Part shown: positions 1,261 through 17,417 of the stretch, piece after piece
Numbering within the stretch: position 1 is the first letter of the stretch
Layout of the letters: every line of letters begins with the position of its first letter
Virus record (IMG/VR): IMGVR_UViG_3300027751_000014
From: an uncultured virus (IMG/VR IMGVR_UViG_3300027751_000014)
Taxonomy: Duplodnaviria; Heunggongvirae; Uroviricota; Caudoviricetes
Length of the DNA stretch: 20,000 nucleotides
Strand: one strand, 5' to 3'
Position numbers and translations under genes: made by a program
Notes under the pieces: model-generated
Database searches by the model: none
Told to the model about the DNA's origin: nothing
What the model saw: only the letters and a program-made list of their open reading frames with translations

Positions 1261-3540
1261 ATGAAGTTAGAAGTCAAATCGACTCCCGTATTGACAAGTG
1301 GGCTGCAAACCCAAGGCGAGTTCCGCATCAAGAACTCCGCAAAGGCGTTTTCGATCCTATCCAGCGGCCTGTACTCCAATAAGTACCAAGCAATCCTGCG
1401 AGAGCTGGGCTGTAATGCTTATGACAGTCACGTTGCCGCAGGCAAAGCAGACGTTCCGTTCACTGTTCACCTTCCTACGAGGTTGAACCCGACCCTCAGC
1501 ATCCGTGATTACGGTGTTGGTCTGGATAATGACGGCGTTATCAACATCTACACAACCTATTTTGAAAGCACCAAGCAAGACAGCAACGATTTTGTGGGCT
1601 GCATGGGTCTTGGTAGCAAGTCACCTTTCTCTTACACGACCAACTTCAGTGTCACAGCCATTAAGGATGGCATGAAGCGGGTTTACAGCGCCTTTATTGG
1701 CGACCAAGGCATCCCAAACATTGCGCGGTTGACCGAAGAAAAGACAACCGAAGGCAACGGCGTAGAGGTGTCCTTCCCCGTAGAGCGCGACGATGTGCGC
1801 TATTTTGAACGCGAAGCACGGGGCGTCTTCAAATGGTTCAAGGTCACCCCAACTTTTGAGGGTGTAGATCTTACAGTAGAGAAGCAAGAATACTCGCAGG
1901 AAAACATTGTTCCTGGCGTGCATATTTTGAAGCCGGAGAGTAGCTGGAGCCGCCCCGACTCTGTGGCGGTTATGGGTAACGTGGCCTATCCGATCAACGC
2001 CAAAAACGCAAACCTCAGCAAGGAGTTGGAGAATGTTTACGACAACCTTGGCGTAGCGATTGAATTTGAAATTGGCGAACTGGACATTGCTGCTTCGAGG
2101 GAAGAGTTGAGTTACGTTCCGCTGACAAAGAAGACGCTGGAACGCAAGGGCGAGGAAATCCTCGCAGGATTGGTCGTCTACCTCGAAGAAAAACTGAAGA
2201 CAAAGAAGTCCCCGTGGGAACGTGGTGTACTTTTTAACGAATTGATGGCAACGAACGCGGACTTCTTTAGGCCAGCCATTATACGCTGGATACAGGACAA
2301 CCCCAAGAAGGTTGACAGCATGTCTAAGATCGGTTACACGGACTATAAGGCAGGTATTGAGTACCCGACCCTTATCAAGAAGTTTCCTGATCTGAGGTTT
2401 GTTAGCAACCAAATCCACCACATCAGTTCACGCAACGGTGATGGTCTGCGGATGAGCAACAACGGTGCACAGTATTTTGAAAACACATCTGGTTGCCTCG
2501 TTTGGTGCCCAGCGGAGACGTATGTTGTTCTGCATGATGGCGTTGGCGATGCTAACCGCAGGATTAAGGCGGCATATAACGCAAAAATGTTCCCGAAGAT
2601 GCGCGGAATGGAATTTGTGGTTATAAAGCCCACTGATAAGAAGGCTGATCCTGAAGCGGCGTTCAAGAAGGCATTGAAGATGCTTGGTCGTCCGCATGCA
2701 AGCCAAGTTTTTAGAACCAGCGACATGCCTGGAAACGTAAAAGGCGCAGCCGGCAAGATCGAGAGACAGATCGGTGTTTTGAATTTTGAACAAAGGGACA
2801 ACGGTCGCTATGGTTCAAGGATGTGGACACTAGTTAAGGCAGAAGATGATTTTGCCGATCTTGAGCCGTCAGTTGATACGACATTCCTTTATGTGCCGCT
2901 GATGAATAAGACTATTGTTGGTGAAAACCACAGCTATAGCGCGGAAGGGTTTGTAGAGACATACAAGGACGTAGTCCAGGAACTGTGTGGATTCAATTTG
3001 ACAGACCACCTTTACGGTGTGTTGAAGACGTCCACAAAGGCTATCCAGGAAAAGACGGATTGGAAAAACTTCTTCGATTATATTGAAGCTAAGTTTGACA
3101 AGCTGGATTGGAACAAGCTTCGCAATGCTGCCCTGCTCGTAGAGAACAGGTCACAGATTATTGATTTGGTCGATTTTACAAATGTCTCAGTCAAGGCATT
3201 AGAGAATTATGTAGCGGTTAGCCCAAATACTTCTTTTGGACAGTTGGCTACTATGTATTTGGAGTGCCGCGACGCAAAGAAGAATGATGCCGCAATGCGG
3301 ACCGCAGTATCCCGCTTCAATAACATCCTTGCTTCAATGCGCAAGCTCTTCCCCAAGAAGAACTTTGACAAATATAGCCTGGACTCAAACGAAGTGGCCG
3401 TGGAGAAGTTGGTAGATAAGATAAAAACCAAATACCCAATGTTGAGTGTGGTCAAGTTGGGCAACGATTACTACAATCGCATTGGGAAAGACAAATGGCA
3501 ACTAATGATTGATTATGTGAAGATGATTGACAACAGGTAG
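1261..3540 (+). CDS. rIIA: RIIA-like protein (N-terminal GHKL/HATPase domain)
   Basis: GHKL motifs LRELGCNAYDSH, IRDYGVGL and GCMGLGSKSPFSY; rIIA-type motifs MGNVAYPI and GELDIAASREELSY; 759 aa; directly followed by rIIB. Confidence 0.92.
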   Translation: MKLEVKSTPVLTSGLQTQGEFRIKNSAKAFSILSSGLYSNKYQAILRELGCNAYDSHVAAGKADVPFTVHLPTRLNPTLSIRDYGVGLDNDGVINIYTTYFESTKQDSNDFVGCMGLGSKSPFSYTTNFSVTAIKDGMKRVYSAFIGDQGIPNIARLTEEKTTEGNGVEVSFPVERDDVRYFEREARGVFKWFKVTPTFEGVDLTVEKQEYSQENIVPGVHILKPESSWSRPDSVAVMGNVAYPINAKNANLSKELENVYDNLGVAIEFEIGELDIAASREELSYVPLTKKTLERKGEEILAGLVVYLEEKLKTKKSPWERGVLFNELMATNADFFRPAIIRWIQDNPKKVDSMSKIGYTDYKAGIEYPTLIKKFPDLRFVSNQIHHISSRNGDGLRMSNNGAQYFENTSGCLVWCPAETYVVLHDGVGDANRRIKAAYNAKMFPKMRGMEFVVIKPTDKKADPEAAFKKALKMLGRPHASQVFRTSDMPGNVKGAAGKIERQIGVLNFEQRDNGRYGSRMWTLVKAEDDFADLEPSVDTTFLYVPLMNKTIVGENHSYSAEGFVETYKDVVQELCGFNLTDHLYGVLKTSTKAIQEKTDWKNFFDYIEAKFDKLDWNKLRNAALLVENRSQIIDLVDFTNVSVKALENYVAVSPNTSFGQLATMYLECRDAKKNDAAMRTAVSRFNNILASMRKLFPKKNFDKYSLDSNEVAVEKLVDKIKTKYPMLSVVKLGNDYYNRIGKDKWQLMIDYVKMIDNR

Positions 3541-3550
3541 TAAATACTAC

Positions 3551-3579
3551 TTGACAACGGCACAATATGGTGCTATAAT
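3551..3579 (+). promoter_or_regulatory. sigma70 promoter of rIIB (extended -10)
   Basis: TTGACA 3551-3556, 17 bp, TGC-TATAAT with the -10 at 3574-3579. Preceded by the small inverted repeat GTAGTA-AA-TACTAC (3537-3550). Confidence 0.85.
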
Positions 3580-3606
3580 GTACACAATGCACACAGGAGA
3601 GTAAAG

Positions 3607-4653
3607 ATGTTTCCGTATATTTTGGTTGATGAAGACACACTGACGATTGTGATTGAGAACACTCACCACATTATCAAGCGTGGTCTGCATCCGAAGTTTG
3701 AACAGATCGTAAATGCCATAAAGGCACAGGATTGGGATGCGATTCCTGACCTTGTCGATCTGACCCGTCAACTCGCTAACTATGCCCAAGGTCTCCTTGA
3801 GGTGAAGAATGGCGATGTTTATTGGGATGGTAAGCCCTTCCACAATGCGCTGACAGATCGGTTGCTGCGTATGCTGGAAGACGACTTCCCTGTTGAGCCG
3901 CTAGTCAACTTCCTGCACAATTTGAAGAAGAATCCTTCGAAGCGCGCAGTGGACGAGCTTTATGGCTTCCTGGAAGTTTGCAACCTGCCCATTACGCCCG
4001 ACGGTCACTTCCTCGCCTACAAGAAAGTTCGCAGGGATTATAAGGACGTTTACAGTGGCACGTTTGACAATAGCGTAGGCCAGGTGTGTTCTATGGCTCG
4101 GAACGAGGTGGATGAAGACAAGGATCGCACCTGCTCGCAGGGCTTGCATTTTTGCTCTATCTCCTACCTCAAGTCTTTTGGCGGTGAGCGTGTAATGATT
4201 CTCAAGATTAACCCCGCTGATGTGGTGTCCATCCCTTCGGATTACAACAACTCAAAGGGTCGCACATGGCGCTATGAGGTTATTGGTGAACACACTAGCG
4301 ACTACGACGGCGGCGACGAGTACGAAGATGCGTTTGAAGATGTGGTTGACACGTCTTGGGGCGATTACGAAGACGATTATGAAGATGATTACGAGGATGA
4401 AGAGGATGACGTAGATGACGAAACGCTTTCTGTTCGAGAAGTGTATGTAGACGATTACGGACAGTACCGCTACTCTGACAGTGGTCAGTATGCGAGCAGC
4501 GAAGCGTATCGTGCCTACAATGACTCGCAGGCGGCTAACGAACCTCGTGCGGTCTACAGAGATAGCCAAGGTCGCTATCGTTACGATGATAATGGTCAGT
4601 ATGCATCTCAGGATGCTTACGATGAATACTGGGACTGGAGAGACGACCAGTAA
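3607..4653 (+). CDS. rIIB: RIIB-like protein with an acidic, repeat-containing C-terminal tail
   Basis: Motifs NPSKRAVDELYGFL, LPITPDGHFLAYKKV, CSQGLHFCS and INPADVVSIPSDYNNSKGR are typical of rIIB. RBS AGGAG. Confidence 0.92.
   Translation: MFPYILVDEDTLTIVIENTHHIIKRGLHPKFEQIVNAIKAQDWDAIPDLVDLTRQLANYAQGLLEVKNGDVYWDGKPFHNALTDRLLRMLEDDFPVEPLVNFLHNLKKNPSKRAVDELYGFLEVCNLPITPDGHFLAYKKVRRDYKDVYSGTFDNSVGQVCSMARNEVDEDKDRTCSQGLHFCSISYLKSFGGERVMILKINPADVVSIPSDYNNSKGRTWRYEVIGEHTSDYDGGDEYEDAFEDVVDTSWGDYEDDYEDDYEDEEDDVDDETLSVREVYVDDYGQYRYSDSGQYASSEAYRAYNDSQAANEPRAVYRDSQGRYRYDDNGQYASQDAYDEYWDWRDDQ
4435..4629 (+). repeat. in-frame tandem duplication (period 111 nt, 37 aa) in the rIIB tail
   Basis: REVYVDDYGQYRYSDSGQYASSEAYRAY (4435-4518) versus RAVYRDSQGRYRYDDNGQYASQDAYDEY (4546-4629). 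Confidence 0.85.
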
Positions 4654-4971: not shown

Positions 4972-6936
4972 ATGAAGAAAACAAGACTACTGTTACCAAA
5001 TTTCAAACTTTCTCCAGCGGAACAATTAGAAGAAGCTGTACGATGCGTATTAGCAGCAGACGAACAGATAGAAACCGCGCTAAACAATGAAACATATACA
5101 TGGGACAATTTGGTTGTCCCTCTTTTGCTTGCTGATAATGAAATCACAAAGGCAAACTCCATCGTGTCATTTTATTACGCTATTGTCAGTGGCGAGGAAT
5201 CCAGTACCGCGCTAAAACAGTTTACAATATTCAGCGCGGCACGAACTAGTAAAATTATTGAAGATGGAAGGATGTTCGCTGCATTGTCCTCGCTAAAGAA
5301 ATCCAAACTAACTAAAAAGCAAAAAGCAATTGTGGAACACCAGTTGCTTTACTTTACACAATCCGGCGCCAGCATTTCACAGGAGAAAAAAGCAGAGCTG
5401 GAAAAAGTTTCAAAACAGCTTACAGAGCAGACCATAGCCTTCCAGTTGAATTATAAAATCTGTGAGGAAGCATGGCAGTTGCACGTTACAGACGAGAGTA
5501 TGTTAGATGGTGTGGATGAAAGCACAAAAAAGATGCTGCACACCGCCGCAAAAGAACAAGGGCTTGATGGTTGGTTGATACGGTATGCAGAAAACACTAT
5601 AGATGAACTTATTAGGGATTGCACAAACCGCACAATGCGACAAAAGCTATTCTTTGCAACGCAGACTATGGCAAGCGATTATAGTACACGCGAAGAAGAT
5701 AATTTCAACCTAATAACAGACATCCTCCATTCAAGGCACAAGAAAGCAAAATTGCTTGGTCATAAAAACTTCGCCTCGTTAGCATTGGAAGGAATGTCGG
5801 TCACCGATCCTGTGCAGATCATACGAATACTAGAGCGCATGATTAGCAAAACGAACAAGAAACTAAAGCGAGAATACAGAGAACTTAGCAAACTGGCGAA
5901 GGGTGAAATCTCAAAACTGGAACGCTGGGACCTCGATCATTATTCTCAACGCTGGAGGGAGGAATTCCTCGAACAGAAACCTATGTCTGACTACCTAGAA
6001 ACAATCCCAACGTTTCGGAGGATGTTGGAATACTTTGGCACATTGCTGGATATAAAATTTGTGGAAGCATCACCGCCGTCAAAGCCGCACAAGTCCGTTA
6101 TGTTTTTTGAAGCCTATAAGGACGATAAACTGCTTGGTGGATTTTACGCAGACATACTACGGCGCCCAGGAAAACACGACGGGGCATGGGTGAATAATTA
6201 TTCCTTCCGTGTGTTTGACGAACCGCAGGTACTTGTGTATGCGCTAAATTATGAAAAGACTATGGGTCACTCAGACCTCATTGTTATGCTGCACGAGTTT
6301 GGTCACCTATTGCATGGCCTATATAATACTAGTCCATATTCCACGTACGGAGGATCGCTATCATTGTCGTGGGATGCGATAGAATTCCCAAGTCAATTTT
6401 TTGAAAACTTTGCCTGGCACCCAGCCTCATTGAAGGTGCTTGCTCGCCACTATGAGACTGGTAGACCACCCACAGCTAAAATGATTGCAACGCAAATAGA
6501 ATCACGTTACGCTGGTTCGGGCTGCTATATGCAACGCTATATTAAGAAAGCCCTAGCCGACATTACCCTCCATTATTCCTACAAGGACAAACCTGATTTT
6601 GTAGACGACACAACGGTGCCTATATTTCACGTAGACGGCATACGTTATCACCAATGGGAAAACAGAATCTTATCGCGTATGCATCATTCCTTTAGCTTTG
6701 ATTCAGGATACGAGTCAATGTACTATGTATACTTTTGGTCGGAAATGATTGCGCGAGATGCGTTTGAACCTTTTATAGAACTAAAAACAAGTTTTGACAT
6801 GGGAACAGAACTCAAAAAGTTTATGACAGCGTTTATTGAACCTGTTGACGAAGACATTAGAAAACTGTTTAAGAAATATATGGGTCGTTCCTTCAATACT
6901 AGAGCATGGGCAAAATTCTACGGCTTCGATAAATAG
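4972..6936 (+). CDS. M3 family zinc oligopeptidase (oligopeptidase A / Dcp-like)
   Basis: HEFGH zinc motif, WDAIEFPSQFFENFAW, GYESMYYVYFWSE and GFYADILRRPGKHDGAW; 654 aa; RBS GGAGG. Confidence 0.92.
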   Translation: MKKTRLLLPNFKLSPAEQLEEAVRCVLAADEQIETALNNETYTWDNLVVPLLLADNEITKANSIVSFYYAIVSGEESSTALKQFTIFSAARTSKIIEDGRMFAALSSLKKSKLTKKQKAIVEHQLLYFTQSGASISQEKKAELEKVSKQLTEQTIAFQLNYKICEEAWQLHVTDESMLDGVDESTKKMLHTAAKEQGLDGWLIRYAENTIDELIRDCTNRTMRQKLFFATQTMASDYSTREEDNFNLITDILHSRHKKAKLLGHKNFASLALEGMSVTDPVQIIRILERMISKTNKKLKREYRELSKLAKGEISKLERWDLDHYSQRWREEFLEQKPMSDYLETIPTFRRMLEYFGTLLDIKFVEASPPSKPHKSVMFFEAYKDDKLLGGFYADILRRPGKHDGAWVNNYSFRVFDEPQVLVYALNYEKTMGHSDLIVMLHEFGHLLHGLYNTSPYSTYGGSLSLSWDAIEFPSQFFENFAWHPASLKVLARHYETGRPPTAKMIATQIESRYAGSGCYMQRYIKKALADITLHYSYKDKPDFVDDTTVPIFHVDGIRYHQWENRILSRMHHSFSFDSGYESMYYVYFWSEMIARDAFEPFIELKTSFDMGTELKKFMTAFIEPVDEDIRKLFKKYMGRSFNTRAWAKFYGFDK

Positions 6937-12028: not shown

Positions 12029-13075
12029 ATGCGTAAATACAAATTAGCCGTATTCATCGGCAGGATGCAGCCACTACACAACGGGCACGTCCAAAACATA
12101 AACAAAGCTTTAGAAATTGCAGACCAGGTTCTTGTGGTCTTAGGCTCGTCCAATGAGCCGCGCACAATCAAAAATCCCTTTACAGTTGAAGAACGCACAG
12201 CCCAAATAGAATCTCTTTGGGGCACCAAAGCCGAAGGAAATTGGCGAGTGCGGGTAGCATCTGTTGAAGATGACCTATACCAAGAAACAAAATGGCTGGA
12301 GGCTGTCCAAGCCGCAGTCCACAACTGGGAAACAAACGACGAGGACATTACAATCCTCGGTCATGAAAAAGATGATTCCAGCTACTACCTAAAAAGCTTC
12401 CCGACCTGGGACTTTACGACTATTGGTGCATACGCTGAGGCTGGCGGCACTGCAATTGACGCAACGAAGATACGCGAACTATATTTTGAAGGACATTTTA
12501 GCTACATAAAATCGGCACTGCCAGTGTCAGTTTACGAGACGCTGATGACCTTCAAAGACACTGAGGCATACGCCCAGCTTGTTAAAGAATTCAATTACAT
12601 CCGCACGTACAAAACTGCATGGGCGCACACGCCATATCCTGTGACATTTTTCACCACAGACGCAGTTGTAATACAGGGCGGACACATCCTACTTATTAGG
12701 CGGCGCGCAGAACCAGGCAAGGGTCTCTGGGCACTTCCTGGCGGCTTCCTCGGTCAAGACGAGACTGCGTTTGATAGCGCAATACGCGAACTGAAGGAAG
12801 AAACCAGATTGAAGGTGCCGGAAGCAGTGTTGCGCGGATCATGCAAAGCCCGCAAACTGTTTGACCACCCTAGCAGGTCATTACGTGGTCGCACAATTAC
12901 ACAAGCGTTTTTGTTTGACCTACCCGACCAGCCCTCACTGCCAAAAGTGAAAGGCGGCGACGATGCGGAAACAGCAAAGTGGTTCGCGCTAGACACAGTT
13001 AAGAACATGTCTCACTCGCTGTTTGAGGACCACAAGTCAATCATCAACATGCTTACAACGAGGGCTGACCAATGA
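12029..13075 (+). CDS. nadM: bifunctional NMN adenylyltransferase / ADP-ribose pyrophosphatase (NadM-Nudix)
   Basis: GRMQPLHNGH (HxGH), KNPFTVEER, GHEKDDSSYYL, DATKIRE, and Nudix box GGFLGQDETAFDSAIRELKEET. Confidence 0.95.
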   Translation: MRKYKLAVFIGRMQPLHNGHVQNINKALEIADQVLVVLGSSNEPRTIKNPFTVEERTAQIESLWGTKAEGNWRVRVASVEDDLYQETKWLEAVQAAVHNWETNDEDITILGHEKDDSSYYLKSFPTWDFTTIGAYAEAGGTAIDATKIRELYFEGHFSYIKSALPVSVYETLMTFKDTEAYAQLVKEFNYIRTYKTAWAHTPYPVTFFTTDAVVIQGGHILLIRRRAEPGKGLWALPGGFLGQDETAFDSAIRELKEETRLKVPEAVLRGSCKARKLFDHPSRSLRGRTITQAFLFDLPDQPSLPKVKGGDDAETAKWFALDTVKNMSHSLFEDHKSIINMLTTRADQ

Positions 13076-14155: not shown

Positions 14156-15658
14156 ATGAGCATTTTAAATGAAATTAGAGAAACATATGGCGTTGCTGGC
14201 GATACAGACAGCTACAAATTTTCGCACCCTGCACAGTATGTAGAAGGTGCTGACAAGCTGATGAGCTACATTGAGAGCAGAGGCGGCGATTATAAAGAAG
14301 TGGTATTCTTCGGATTGCAGCTAATCCTCAAAGAATACTTCCTGGAAAGAATGACCCACAAACAAGTGGACAACATCATCGCCTTCCAGCGTGAACACCT
14401 ATTTGGTGTAGAAATTGACAAGCTTGAGGTTGCGCTACGAGCAGTAGTTGACGACTACGACGGCTACATGCCGCTGCGAATCAAAGCAGTCCAAGAAGGC
14501 ACAGTGGTTCCTACGGGCAACGTGTTGGTGACAGTTGAGACGACCGTGGAAGATCCGCGCGTATTCTCGCTGGTCACATACATGGAAACCAAGCTGATGA
14601 GGCTCTGGTCACCTACAACGGTTGCAACGACATCCTACCACATTAAAAAGATCATCTACAACGCACTGAAGCGCACAGCCGACGACGCTGATGCAGAAAT
14701 CGGTTTTAAACTGCATGACTTTGGTTCACGTGGTGTGAGTAGTTTGGAAACCGCTGCATTTGCAGGTGCTGCTCACCTTGTAAACTTCCTCGGAAGCGAT
14801 ACGACAGTGGGTATTATGGCTGCGAACATCGGCTATAACACGCAAATGGCTGGCTACAGCATTCCTGCTACAGAACATAGCACGACCACAAGCTTTGGAC
14901 GCCACGGCGAAGAGGCACTGGTGCAGCGTATGTTTGACAACTTTGCAAAACCTGGCGCAATTTTCGCTACGGTCGCTGACAGTTACGACATTATGAACTT
15001 TGTGGAAACGATTGCTCCCAAGTTTAAGAAGCAGTTACGCGAAAGCGGCGCGACTTGGGTCATCCGTCCTGACAGCGGCGATGCAGTTGAGACCCCTGTC
15101 GAATTGGTGCGCAGGTTGTCCAGGATCTTTGGATTTACGTACAACAAGAAAGGCTTTAAAGTTCTTGACGGTGTGCGCGTGATCCAAGGTGACGGCATTG
15201 ACATTAACGATGTGCGAGCAATTGTTGAGAAGCTGGAAGCTGAACAGTTTAGCATTAGCAACATTGCGTTTGGTATGGGCGGCGGCTTGCTGCAAAAAAA
15301 TAACAGGGACACCCTCAAGTTTGCGATGAAGGCTTGCGCGGTTCATGTTGACGGTGTGTGGCATGATGTGTACAAAGATCCGACTATCTACGATGCAACA
15401 AGCTGGAAGCCCCTCGCTTCAAGTTTTAAGAAGTCCAAAGCTGGTCGCTTGGAATTGCTGTACAACGGTACAGACTACAAGACAGTGCGAGTTGAGGAAG
15501 TTGCTGAATACGTAGCTGACGGTTACAAGGCAATGCTTGAGACTGTATACGATCATGGCAAGCTTGTGCGAGACATGAACTTTGAGCAGGTGCGCGAAAA
15601 CGCAAAACTGCCTGAGGAACGTGTACACACTGCAAAGGTTGAAAGCGAGGTGGCGTAA
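14156..15658 (+). CDS. nadV: nicotinamide phosphoribosyltransferase (NAMPT)
   Basis: DTDSYKFSH, VFFGLQ, KLHDFGSRG, SIPATEHS, VADSYD, VIRPDSGD, IQGDGI and FGMGGGLLQ. Confidence 0.95.
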   Translation: MSILNEIRETYGVAGDTDSYKFSHPAQYVEGADKLMSYIESRGGDYKEVVFFGLQLILKEYFLERMTHKQVDNIIAFQREHLFGVEIDKLEVALRAVVDDYDGYMPLRIKAVQEGTVVPTGNVLVTVETTVEDPRVFSLVTYMETKLMRLWSPTTVATTSYHIKKIIYNALKRTADDADAEIGFKLHDFGSRGVSSLETAAFAGAAHLVNFLGSDTTVGIMAANIGYNTQMAGYSIPATEHSTTTSFGRHGEEALVQRMFDNFAKPGAIFATVADSYDIMNFVETIAPKFKKQLRESGATWVIRPDSGDAVETPVELVRRLSRIFGFTYNKKGFKVLDGVRVIQGDGIDINDVRAIVEKLEAEQFSISNIAFGMGGGLLQKNNRDTLKFAMKACAVHVDGVWHDVYKDPTIYDATSWKPLASSFKKSKAGRLELLYNGTDYKTVRVEEVAEYVADGYKAMLETVYDHGKLVRDMNFEQVRENAKLPEERVHTAKVESEVA

Positions 15659-16518
15659 TGAACGCTCTAAAAACAAAACAGTTCACAAACGGTTTTGTAT
15701 CAGTTGTGCAATTGAATGACAATTTGCTGATTGAAACAACCTCGACCTGCTTACCTGGTCAAACTGAGGTGCGTAATACCCACCGCAAAGACAACAAAGT
15801 GGATGCTAATGCCTTCTCGATTCAAAACTGGAAGGAGAAGTGGACGGTAGGCATTAGCACACAGTCTGGTTGCCCAATCAAATGCAAATTTTGTGCGGTC
15901 AACCGCTTGACGGATAAGCAACACTGGCGTAATCTTACTGCCCAAGAAATGGTAGACCAAGTAACGTATGCGATTGCGGAAGCACAAAAGATCAACGGTG
16001 GTCTTGATCCAAACGACAGCGGAATTTTTAGGGTGTTGTTTACGAGGATGGGCGAGCCTGCGATGAACATAGATGAAGTTGTGCAGGCAGTTAATCGCAT
16101 CAAGGTAATGTTCCCGAAAGCTCGCATCCAAGTTTCCACTATTGGTATTCCAAGGTCAGTAGAACTGGTAGATCAATTGATGGTGCTTGAAGAAATATAC
16201 GGAAACGATTGGTTAGAGCTGCAATTTAGTATCCACAGCACAGACGACGAATACCGCAAGTGGCTACAGTCTATTACAGTTATGTCCAATGAAGACATTG
16301 GCAAGTTGGCAGCATCTTGGTACTACAGGTTCCCAAACCGCCCTTGGAAAGCAACGCTGAATTTTGCTCTTGCTGAAGGCACACCATTTGACGCCAACCA
16401 CCTAAGAACACAGTTTGATCCTAAGACCGTGTTCATTAAGGTGTCGCCAATAAACGAAAACCCTGTCTCCGATGAAAATTCATTGAAGACATTATTTACA
16501 TACGAGAACACAATCTAA
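15658..16518 (+). CDS. RlmN/Cfr-like (class A) radical SAM protein lacking the C-terminal AACGQ segment
   Basis: ISTQSGCPIKCKFC (CxxxCxxC at 15871-15894), RNLTAQEMVDQV, RMGEP, VSTIGI and LQFSIHS. TAATG coupling to nadV. Confidence 0.88.
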   Translation: MNALKTKQFTNGFVSVVQLNDNLLIETTSTCLPGQTEVRNTHRKDNKVDANAFSIQNWKEKWTVGISTQSGCPIKCKFCAVNRLTDKQHWRNLTAQEMVDQVTYAIAEAQKINGGLDPNDSGIFRVLFTRMGEPAMNIDEVVQAVNRIKVMFPKARIQVSTIGIPRSVELVDQLMVLEEIYGNDWLELQFSIHSTDDEYRKWLQSITVMSNEDIGKLAASWYYRFPNRPWKATLNFALAEGTPFDANHLRTQFDPKTVFIKVSPINENPVSDENSLKTLFTYENTI

Positions 16519-16528
16519 GGAGAATGAA

Positions 16529-16678
16529 ATGAAACAGGTAAATGAAATTGTGAATGAAATTGAAGAAGCTGGTTTTGAAGGTGCAGTAGCAATCGCAACC
16601 GAAGCCGAAGTCCAAGCAGGTGCCGCCTGCGGACAGATGTGCCTGGTTACAGAAGCACTAGAAACCCAGGAAGACTAA
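16529..16678 (+). CDS. 49-aa acidic peptide carrying the RlmN-type AACGQ motif (not in the ORF track)
   Basis: Translation MKQVNEIVNEIEEAGFEGAVAIATEAEVQAGAACGQMCLVTEALETQED*. Own RBS TAAGGAG at 16516-16522; different frame from the upstream gene; followed by a terminator. Confidence 0.85.
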   Translation: MKQVNEIVNEIEEAGFEGAVAIATEAEVQAGAACGQMCLVTEALETQED

Positions 16679-16693
16679 CATCTTGGCTGAACG

Positions 16694-16713
16694 AGGGCAG
16701 AAATGCCCTTTTT
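16694..16713 (+). terminator. rho-independent terminator closing the NAD/radical-SAM operon
   Basis: AGGGCA-GAAA-TGCCCT followed by TTTT. Confidence 0.75.
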
Positions 16714-16763
16714 CAGTGTCGCTTGGACTCCATATATAGTAAATACACATACGGAGGATAACA

Positions 16764-17417
16764 ATGTATAAACATGATGTAGAGATGAGAGATAGTTGGG
16801 TTTGGCCAAAAGATGATATTGGTGCGTGGATGTGGCTAAATAACGAAATGGATTTGCCGCAGCGGATAAGGAAACATGTCAGTAACTTTGACACATGCAT
16901 CCATGCTGGAGCCCACGCTGGTATCTATACGAAACAGTATGCATATATGTTTAGACATATTTATGCAGTTGAACCGCAAGGTAGAAACTTCTTTTGTCTC
17001 ACAACAAACGTCCATGAAGAAAACGTAACCAAAATACAGGCATGCTTCAGCAACAAGCGTAAGCGTGTAAATATGTATACCGCTGACCGAACCAATAGCG
17101 GCGGCTTCTTCGTAACACCAGGAGATGATTTCCATGTAATTTTGATGGATGACTTGATTGGTGATGTTGGACTGATACATTTGGACGTGGAAGGTCATGA
17201 GCTAGAAGCGTTACAAGGCGGCAAGGAATTAATCGACCGCTGCTCCCCCGTCATTGTGTTGGAGACAATCCATCCAGAAAAAGACAAGGTGGCCGCAGAA
17301 TTCTTGTTTGAGCTTGGATATGAGGTTGTTGAATTACTAGGCATTGACGATTGGGGCAAACCTGGCCTTGACACCGTTTACAAGCGTAAACCTAAGAGCA
17401 AGCGAAACAAGAAGTAA
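16764..17417 (+). CDS. FkbM-family SAM-dependent methyltransferase
   Basis: IHAGAHAGIY, AVEP, LIHLDVEGHELEALQGG and SPVIVLE; RBS GGAGG; TAAATA at 16740. Confidence 0.85.
   Translation: MYKHDVEMRDSWVWPKDDIGAWMWLNNEMDLPQRIRKHVSNFDTCIHAGAHAGIYTKQYAYMFRHIYAVEPQGRNFFCLTTNVHEENVTKIQACFSNKRKRVNMYTADRTNSGGFFVTPGDDFHVILMDDLIGDVGLIHLDVEGHELEALQGGKELIDRCSPVIVLETIHPEKDKVAAEFLFELGYEVVELLGIDDWGKPGLDTVYKRKPKSKRNKK

Follow-up and report, generated by a model that had tools for sequence, protein, structure and literature searches.

An RlmN/Cfr-like radical S-adenosylmethionine enzyme of phages with its putative methyl-carrying cysteine on a separate, conserved peptide

Can a radical S-adenosylmethionine (SAM) methylase keep its methyl-carrying cysteine on a polypeptide other than its catalytic core? 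In the textbook class A radical SAM methylases, RlmN and Cfr, the latter a major antibiotic-resistance enzyme, the mechanism depends on two cysteines that belong to a single chain. The question is raised by a 20,000-nucleotide (nt) stretch, referred to here as the window, of the uncultured virus IMGVR_UViG_3300027751_000014 in IMG/VR. In the window, the gene for an RlmN/Cfr-like radical SAM core (positions 15658–16518, plus strand) is followed by a separate gene (16529–16678, plus strand) for a 49-residue peptide with an RlmN-type AACGQ loop. According to PMC12871812, Cys355 of RlmN is the methyl carrier, and Cys118 carries out the deprotonation that gives the product. An earlier note, made from the letters of the window, had proposed a two-component system with a separate methyl-carrying segment. 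This proposal gained support here from a profile alignment, the end of the enzyme at RlmN residue 325, predicted binding of the two products, and conservation of the split, and we consider it fairly probable that the pair forms a class A radical SAM methylase-like enzyme of two subunits, with its cysteine loop supplied in trans.

The 286-residue product of the first gene contains the motifs SGCPIKCKFC, RMGEP, STIGI, and FSIHS, and its reading frame closes with a TAA codon at 16516–16518. Translation of the codons at 15871–15894 (plus strand) gives the CX3CX2C motif for the [4Fe-4S] cluster, whose residues Cys72, Cys76, and Cys79 are the sole invariant cysteines in 18 diverse homologs. Seven residues before the first cluster cysteine, at the site of RlmN Cys118, the enzyme has Gly65 (GGC, 15850–15852, plus strand). 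The best NCBIfam models for the protein were those of RlmN and Cfr, which covered residues 58–206 only. TIGR00048 (RlmN) scored 66 bits (E 2.8e-18) against a cut-off of 290, with the profile match beginning at RlmN position 101, and the Cfr models scored 47–54 bits against cut-offs of 468–550. PF04055 also matched (E 7e-9). When a profile of the 18 diverse homologs was searched against PDB sequences, all five matches were RlmN or Cfr (E 1e-17 to 7e-15).

The AlphaFold model of the enzyme reached a predicted local distance difference test (pLDDT) value of 90.8, and its top eleven Foldseek matches were all RlmN or Cfr entries. VIA-align superposed model residues 1–282 on residues 80–325 of Escherichia coli RlmN (Z 23.6, root-mean-square deviation 2.5 Å, 235 residues aligned), compared with Z 17.2 for Cfr and Z 13.9 for TYW1, the next family. 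The fold and profile alignments thus indicate an RlmN core without residues 1–79 and without the part beyond about residue 325. The apparent absence of the N-terminal domain, seen already in the letters, was confirmed, as model residue 1 aligns to RlmN residue 80. The CX3CX2C motif and the radical SAM core fold of class A are present, whereas three defining features tested here, namely a Cys118 equivalent, the N-terminal helical RNA-binding domain, and a score above the curated family cut-off, are missing, and the enzyme therefore falls outside the RlmN and Cfr families as defined. Look-alike clusters in the Protein Atlas were mostly viral. A weak PADLOC match to the enzyme (E 8e-4) was disregarded.

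The peptide gene starts in the +1 frame after a gap of 10 nt (16519–16528), and a Shine-Dalgarno-like AAGGAG (16517–16522, plus strand) stands 6 nt upstream of its ATG. Similar purine-rich sites lie upstream of many homologous peptides. The coordinates, motifs, gap, frame, ribosome-binding site, and glycine codon given in the earlier note all agreed with the sequence. The peptide is acidic and consists of a helix, a strand (GAVAIAT), and the AACGQ loop (AGAACGQMC, with Cys34 and Cys38), the sequence running on as AGAACGQMCLV near its end. No family was found for it in Pfam, NCBIfam, PHROGs, or PADLOC. When a profile of 19 peptide homologs was aligned to E. coli RlmN with hhalign, peptide residues 6–39 fell on RlmN residues 329–360 (E 4.9e-4). 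Cys34 (codon 16628–16630, plus strand), which is invariant in the 19-row alignment, was placed on the AACGQ cysteine, making it the counterpart of Cys355. The aligned RlmN segment starts where the match of the enzyme stops (residue 325), and one pattern is common to the peptide and RlmN: a helix, G[FY], a strand, an acidic and then an aliphatic residue, and AACGQ[LM].

A hairpin followed by a short U run (16686–16717, plus strand; −19.5 kcal/mol, z −4.1) lies downstream of the peptide gene and probably marks the end of the transcription unit. The terminator of the earlier note thus holds as far as the hairpin and the U run are concerned, although the consensus terminator scan did not list it. 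Two further observations concern the peptide gene. A two-codon mini-open reading frame (ATG AAA TGA, 16524–16532) overlaps its start codon just past the ribosome-binding site. The peptide stretch ATxAEVxAG resembles the repeated 'LATQAEVDAG' unit of the long, tail-fibre-like repeat proteins P0249 and P0254; these matches to the 'ATQAEVDAG' repeats (E 6e-4 to 9e-4, six stretches in each protein) were judged to be a chance likeness.

The split is kept in all sources compared for it. A tblastn search returned 31 phage records, the eight closest of which (37–57% identity) were from Vibrio phage D479, four Pectobacterium phages, a Yersinia phage, a crAss-like Kehishuvirus, and a Moorella phage. A scan of viral contigs yielded 257 confirmed relatives and a species-representative genome collection more than 553, and the best 80 of each were examined. 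Counting the window, 87 sources were compared; of the other 86 loci, two carry the window's own sequence. A separate open reading frame (ORF) for the peptide was present in 87 of 87, with the strict motif in 84 and a looser motif in the other three (AACGMM and AACSQL variants). The peptide was always encoded on the same strand as the enzyme and in no source (0/87) fused to the enzyme's C terminus. It usually lay about 100 nt downstream of the enzyme; in some lineages it was found 385–1306 nt downstream, behind other genes, and at locus L017 it stood 1.7 kb upstream. Clustering of same-strand ORFs from the 85 non-redundant loci gave the enzyme and the peptide as the sole families common to all.

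Glycine occupied the Cys118 site in all 85 loci and in 117 of 117 database homologs with the cluster motif (three fragments were without the motif), and it was invariant in the 18 diverse enzymes. The search proposed in the earlier note thus found both the split and the glycine to be conserved. A profile search of 1.84 billion representative proteins gave 130 members of the peptide family, nearly all of 27–180 residues. In 13 pairs of peptide genes, the proportion of nonsynonymous differences per site (pN, 0.07–0.27) was well below that of synonymous ones (pS, 0.63–0.98), indicating that the peptide is a translated gene under purifying selection. The exact enzyme sequence of the window occurred on 10 contigs and the exact peptide sequence on 14. 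Contigs of the DNA runs X4 and X5, which are not marked as possible sources, span the junction and showed no difference there. The RNA-library contigs X15 and X16 cover only 16219–16475 and 16723–16875, not the peptide, and may come from DNA carry-over. Megablast of the region against phage records returned no near-identical DNA, and two matches labelled as Klebsiella 'phage' (H30 and H31) turned out to be host rlmN beside ndk and rodZ.

Several variants of the arrangement were found. In a rare form, P0238 and P0255 (315 residues, 98% identical, three contigs), the peptide is fused to the N terminus of the enzyme, and the GEP motif reads RLGDP. Relative to RlmN, this fusion is a circular permutation, which fits a subunit role of the peptide. 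In Vibrio phage D479 (L001, 3357–3581), one ORF holds two near-identical helix-strand-AACGQ units. Some peptides carry long C-terminal tails of up to 70 extra residues (L016/P0204, P0197, and P0203). At L150 (about 5960–6070), a peptide homolog has lost CGQL, including the key cysteine, beside an intact enzyme gene, and may be a decaying copy.

Three folding runs of the enzyme together with the cluster, SAM, and the peptide gave an ipSAE interface score of 0.81, whereas the best of three controls scored 0.02. Of 157 solved complexes, 116 attain the mark of 0.81, and of 215 mismatched pairs, 2 do; this calibration does not extend to our own alignments and the riding ligands. The runs had at least 93% of contacts in common, and the pLDDT of the partner was at least 69. 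The peptide is predicted to dock as the final strand of the enzyme sheet. In the models, its residues 16–20 lie against the last strand of the enzyme (258–262), and residues 26–44 touch enzyme residues 78–88, 129, and 131, beside the cluster motif and the GEP motif. Modelling of the pair, as proposed in the earlier note, predicts binding, the strand of the peptide extending the sheet at the last strand of the enzyme.

The following observations, and the calibration limit just given, speak against a two-subunit methylase. The hhalign probability for the alignment of the peptide with RlmN was just 32%, and the peptide profile alone, searched against PDB sequences at E up to 10, retrieved designed proteins only and no RlmN. 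Because this profile-only search missed RlmN, the link between peptide and RlmN rests on hhalign, position, and spacing, and taken alone this sequence likeness deserves moderate confidence; the predicted complex reinforces it. The ipSAE score may, however, stem from single-chain RlmN structures that the model has memorised. All 19 peptides are acidic (isoelectric point (pI) 4.05–5.05, net charge −2 to −10, the window peptide having −10), whereas the equivalent RlmN segment (residues 326–384) is basic (pI 10); an acidic peptide would be a poor fit with RNA binding beside it. No conserved cysteine or other obvious base replaces Cys118 in the 18 diverse homologs. In addition, the conserved split, the tandem peptide of D479, and the variable tails would also fit a peptide that is consumed.

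Candidates for a substitute of Cys118 were also sought among the cysteines of the window itself. Enzyme Cys31 was ruled out since it is Phe or Tyr in distant members. The second peptide cysteine, four residues after the first, is present in the window as Cys38, as the earlier note had remarked; it is not conserved in the family and was ruled out as a resolving thiol.

Comparison with fused relatives separated three groups. Group I, with both cysteines in one chain, comprises canonical RlmN and phage 'mini-RlmN' proteins of about 310 residues (Ahp1, Arash, ANB28, 166E36-1, and LR756500). Group II comprises fused proteins of about 300–315 residues without a Cys118-type cysteine, which have I, L, V, or T at that site and an IGSNCGQ loop in cis. 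It accounted for 33 of the 80 genome-collection loci, from Thermoplasmata, Bacteroidales, Ignavibacteria, Thermotogae, and others, and a protein of Bacteroides phage Versailles also belongs to it. Group III, the split family, accounted for 14 of the 80, all 14 with glycine at the site and a separate peptide. Groups II and III have a spacing of 20 residues from G[FY] to the loop cysteine, compared with 18 in RlmN, and have the residues R130, K231, F236, K261, T195, and F124 in common, whereas RlmN has G177, R274, Y279, and N307. Judged from these sequences, the closest relatives of the split family are fused cellular proteins that are also without Cys118. As the single-chain enzymes of group II without Cys118 share features of group III, loss of Cys118 appears to predate the split. 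This suggests that the clade has another route of product release, and it speaks against deducing a permanent cross-link from the missing cysteine alone. The suggestion of the earlier note that the peptide stays behind as a stuck tag for want of a resolving cysteine is weakened accordingly.

Of 36 group II loci, 31 have a thioredoxin-reductase-like flavoprotein next to the RlmN-like gene and 25 an isochorismatase-family hydrolase. These neighbours hint at thiol/disulfide or reductive chemistry; neither was found at the 85 phage split loci. The group II neighbourhood is conserved across archaeal and bacterial phyla (L168–L206, for example L172 2869–5231), and the system has no name in the libraries searched. 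Kaminska et al. (PMC2836569) describe Cfr/RlmN proteins as missing from Archaea save one species, and group II thus seems not to be covered by their description of the family.

The 286-residue protein is the radical SAM core of a class A methylase, and the 49-residue peptide is the counterpart of the last helix, strand, and loop of RlmN that this core lacks. In the model of the docked pair, the conserved AACGQ loop touches residues that adjoin the iron-sulfur and SAM motifs. By analogy with RlmN, Cys34 would be methylated by a first SAM. A second SAM would then be cleaved to a 5ʹ-deoxyadenosyl radical that activates the S-methyl group of Cys34, and the resulting methylene radical would attack the substrate, most likely an adenine ring, in RNA or in an adenine nucleotide. 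The split enzyme would thus resemble RlmN in its first steps. Release would probably proceed without Cys118, as the fused cellular relatives are without it too, via another residue or a reductive step, so that the enzyme turns over. The data show homology, a split kept throughout, purifying selection on the peptide, and, as a prediction, docking; the chemistry and the substrate are inferred.

The split enzyme has in common with RlmN (PDB 3RF9/3RFA and 5HR6/5HR7) and Cfr (9P0P) the CX3CX2C motif in an xSxQxGC context, the GEP, STxG, and SxH motifs, and the core fold, and the window peptide has in common with them the [DE]-[IV]-x-AACGQ[LM] loop after the helix and the G[FY] strand. Unlike them, it has the cysteine loop on a separate product, Gly in place of Cys118, no counterpart of RlmN residues 1–79, an acidic loop segment, a distance from GF to the cysteine of 20 rather than 18 residues, and scores far below the family cut-offs. 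The mini-RlmN proteins of Aeromonas phage Ahp1, Salmonella phage Arash, Stenotrophomonas phage ANB28, and Vibrio phage 166E36-1 (about 310 residues, 27–30% identical to the window enzyme) are likewise phage-encoded and without the N-terminal domain, but are single chains with a Cys118-type cysteine and a C-terminal GGGCGQLW cysteine in cis. Group II proteins resemble the split system in having no Cys118, no N-terminal domain, the 20-residue spacing, and R130/K231/F236/K261, and differ in their single chain, the IGSNCGQ loop in cis, and the flavoprotein and hydrolase neighbours. In the literature searched, whose coverage did not extend to subscription journals and supplements, we found neither a split nor a Cys118-less RlmN-like enzyme described. 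With the methyl-carrying cysteine on a detachable peptide of 40–50 residues, the carrier step might be studied on a small peptide that can be synthesised, and a family without Cys118 invites asking by what means the covalent intermediate is set free. The split family is widespread, occurring in the abundant crAss-like gut phages, T4-like marine phages, and phages of Pectobacterium, Yersinia, and Moorella, and its fused cellular sister group is unnamed in the libraries searched.

Two kinds of neighbouring genes recur beside the pair. In the window, the stop codon of a nicotinamide phosphoribosyltransferase gene (NadV/Nampt; 14156–15658, plus strand; NAPRTase E 5.8e-47, NAMPT_N E 1.9e-18) overlaps the start codon of the radical SAM gene. 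A nicotinamide mononucleotide (NMN) adenylyltransferase/Nudix-type protein (NatV-like; phrog_395 E 1.2e-83, and phrog_3462) is encoded at 12029–13075 (plus strand). These two genes form a NARP2-type nicotinamide adenine dinucleotide (NAD) salvage pair directly upstream of the enzyme-peptide module. In 8 of 85 loci, spread over 5 of 24 clusters, a Nampt or adenylyltransferase gene was found no more than 3 kb from the module, which sits beside or between these genes; at least two gene orders occur, and two distant lineages are represented. In Vibrio phage 166E36-1, a fused group I gene follows Nampt. The NARP2 preprint places NARP2 in about 1.1% of phage genomes, and in its main text the words 'radical' and 'methyltransferase' do not occur. 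The adjacency may reflect a common anti-defence island or mere synteny.

The other recurrent neighbours are a second radical SAM gene and a class I methyltransferase gene (about 148 residues), which stood beside the pair in 10 of 85 loci, spread over 5 of the 24 enzyme clusters formed at 90% identity. The second radical SAM protein (220–274 residues) resembles MoaA, viperin, or PapB in its core alone and has no SPASM domain. The two genes always co-occurred, in shuffled orders (L009 4258–5338, L015 3905–5154, L017 2253–4327, L051 3783–4971, and L073 3789–5004), and within one 90%-identity enzyme cluster some members had this cassette and others did not. A search with the second enzyme gave 55 loci, 52 of which held an RlmN-like gene within 4 kb; the exceptions were one truncated contig and two distant matches. 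The FkbM methyltransferase gene of the window (16764–17417) was ruled out as a partner, having no homolog in the other 84 loci. Transfer RNA genes adjoined the module in just 1 of 23 sources scanned.

Other explanations of the pair have to be weighed against the two-subunit enzyme. The split could be an artefact or a decaying gene, in which a frameshift or a stop error has cut a once-fused frame; the two ORFs do lie 10 nt apart in different frames, and fused relatives do exist. However, the same split recurs in all 87 sources, in phage groups down to 37% enzyme identity, the peptide may be as far as 1.3 kb from the enzyme or upstream of it, and the gene is under purifying selection. The identical proteins on 10 and 14 contigs, the unchanged junction in X4 and X5, and the absence of C-terminal fusions agree with the argument of the earlier note against a frameshift. 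As far as sequence data can show, an artefact is refuted, and we give it a negligible chance. The peptide might instead be a single-use co-substrate, whose Cys34 -S-CH2- link to adenine, in RNA or a nucleotide, persists so that one peptide is spent per reaction. The glycine that stands throughout at the Cys118 site would suit this, since it is Cys118 that performs the releasing deprotonation in RlmN (PMC12871812), and by their entry titles PDB 5HR6 and 5HR7 hold C118A RlmN cross-linked to tRNA. The split kept in every source, the tandem peptide of D479, the variable tails, and the strong ribosome-binding site that the peptide has of its own would suit it as well. Yet the fused relatives without Cys118 (33 of 80 loci) would destroy themselves in each turnover if nothing replaced this residue, and the N-terminally fused form, too, would act as a suicide enzyme. 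Only one tandem peptide was found, and no adduct-processing gene is conserved nearby in the 85 loci. We therefore regard consumption of the peptide as unlikely.

The peptide could also be both substrate and final product, a precursor like those of ribosomally synthesised and post-translationally modified peptides (RiPPs) or of cofactors. The RlmN-like enzyme would then modify its Cys or residues close by, joined in some phages by the second radical SAM enzyme and the methyltransferase. Small acidic peptides beside radical SAM enzymes are typical of RiPP-like systems, and the cassette that travels with the pair in 10 of 85 loci, the RlmN-like gene at 52 of the 55 second-enzyme loci, and the two-copy peptide of D479 point in this direction. 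On the other hand, the peptide has its homolog in a structural element inside RlmN and, by prediction, completes the enzyme sheet, and 75 of the 85 loci have the two genes only. No protease, exporter, or recognition-element gene is conserved across these loci, conservation spans nearly the whole peptide with no leader and core organisation, and the enzyme scored below the cut-off of every peptide-maturase family. Such a precursor role seems to us quite improbable. We see a slim chance that the peptide, used once, is welded by an -S-CH2- bridge to an adenine in some host or immune molecule, such as an RNA, an NAD-derived signal, or an oligoadenylate signal, as a counter-defence conjugation; if this were true, placement of the module inside NadV/NatV pairs would reflect a common anti-defence role. 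The two-subunit enzyme thus remains our preferred reading.

The window itself is part of a 69-kb viral contig. Homologs of rIIA and rIIB at 1261–4653 (PHROG E 1.8e-129 and 3.6e-76) indicate that the contig derives from a T4-like phage. Besides the NatV-like adenylyltransferase and the nicotinamide phosphoribosyltransferase, the window encodes an endolysin-like gene and a 654-residue ORF (4972–6936) that had no match in PHROG or PADLOC families. At window position 16749, in the spacer before the FkbM methyltransferase gene, two bases are absent from the contigs of X4, X5, and X15, a strain difference that touches neither the enzyme nor the peptide gene.

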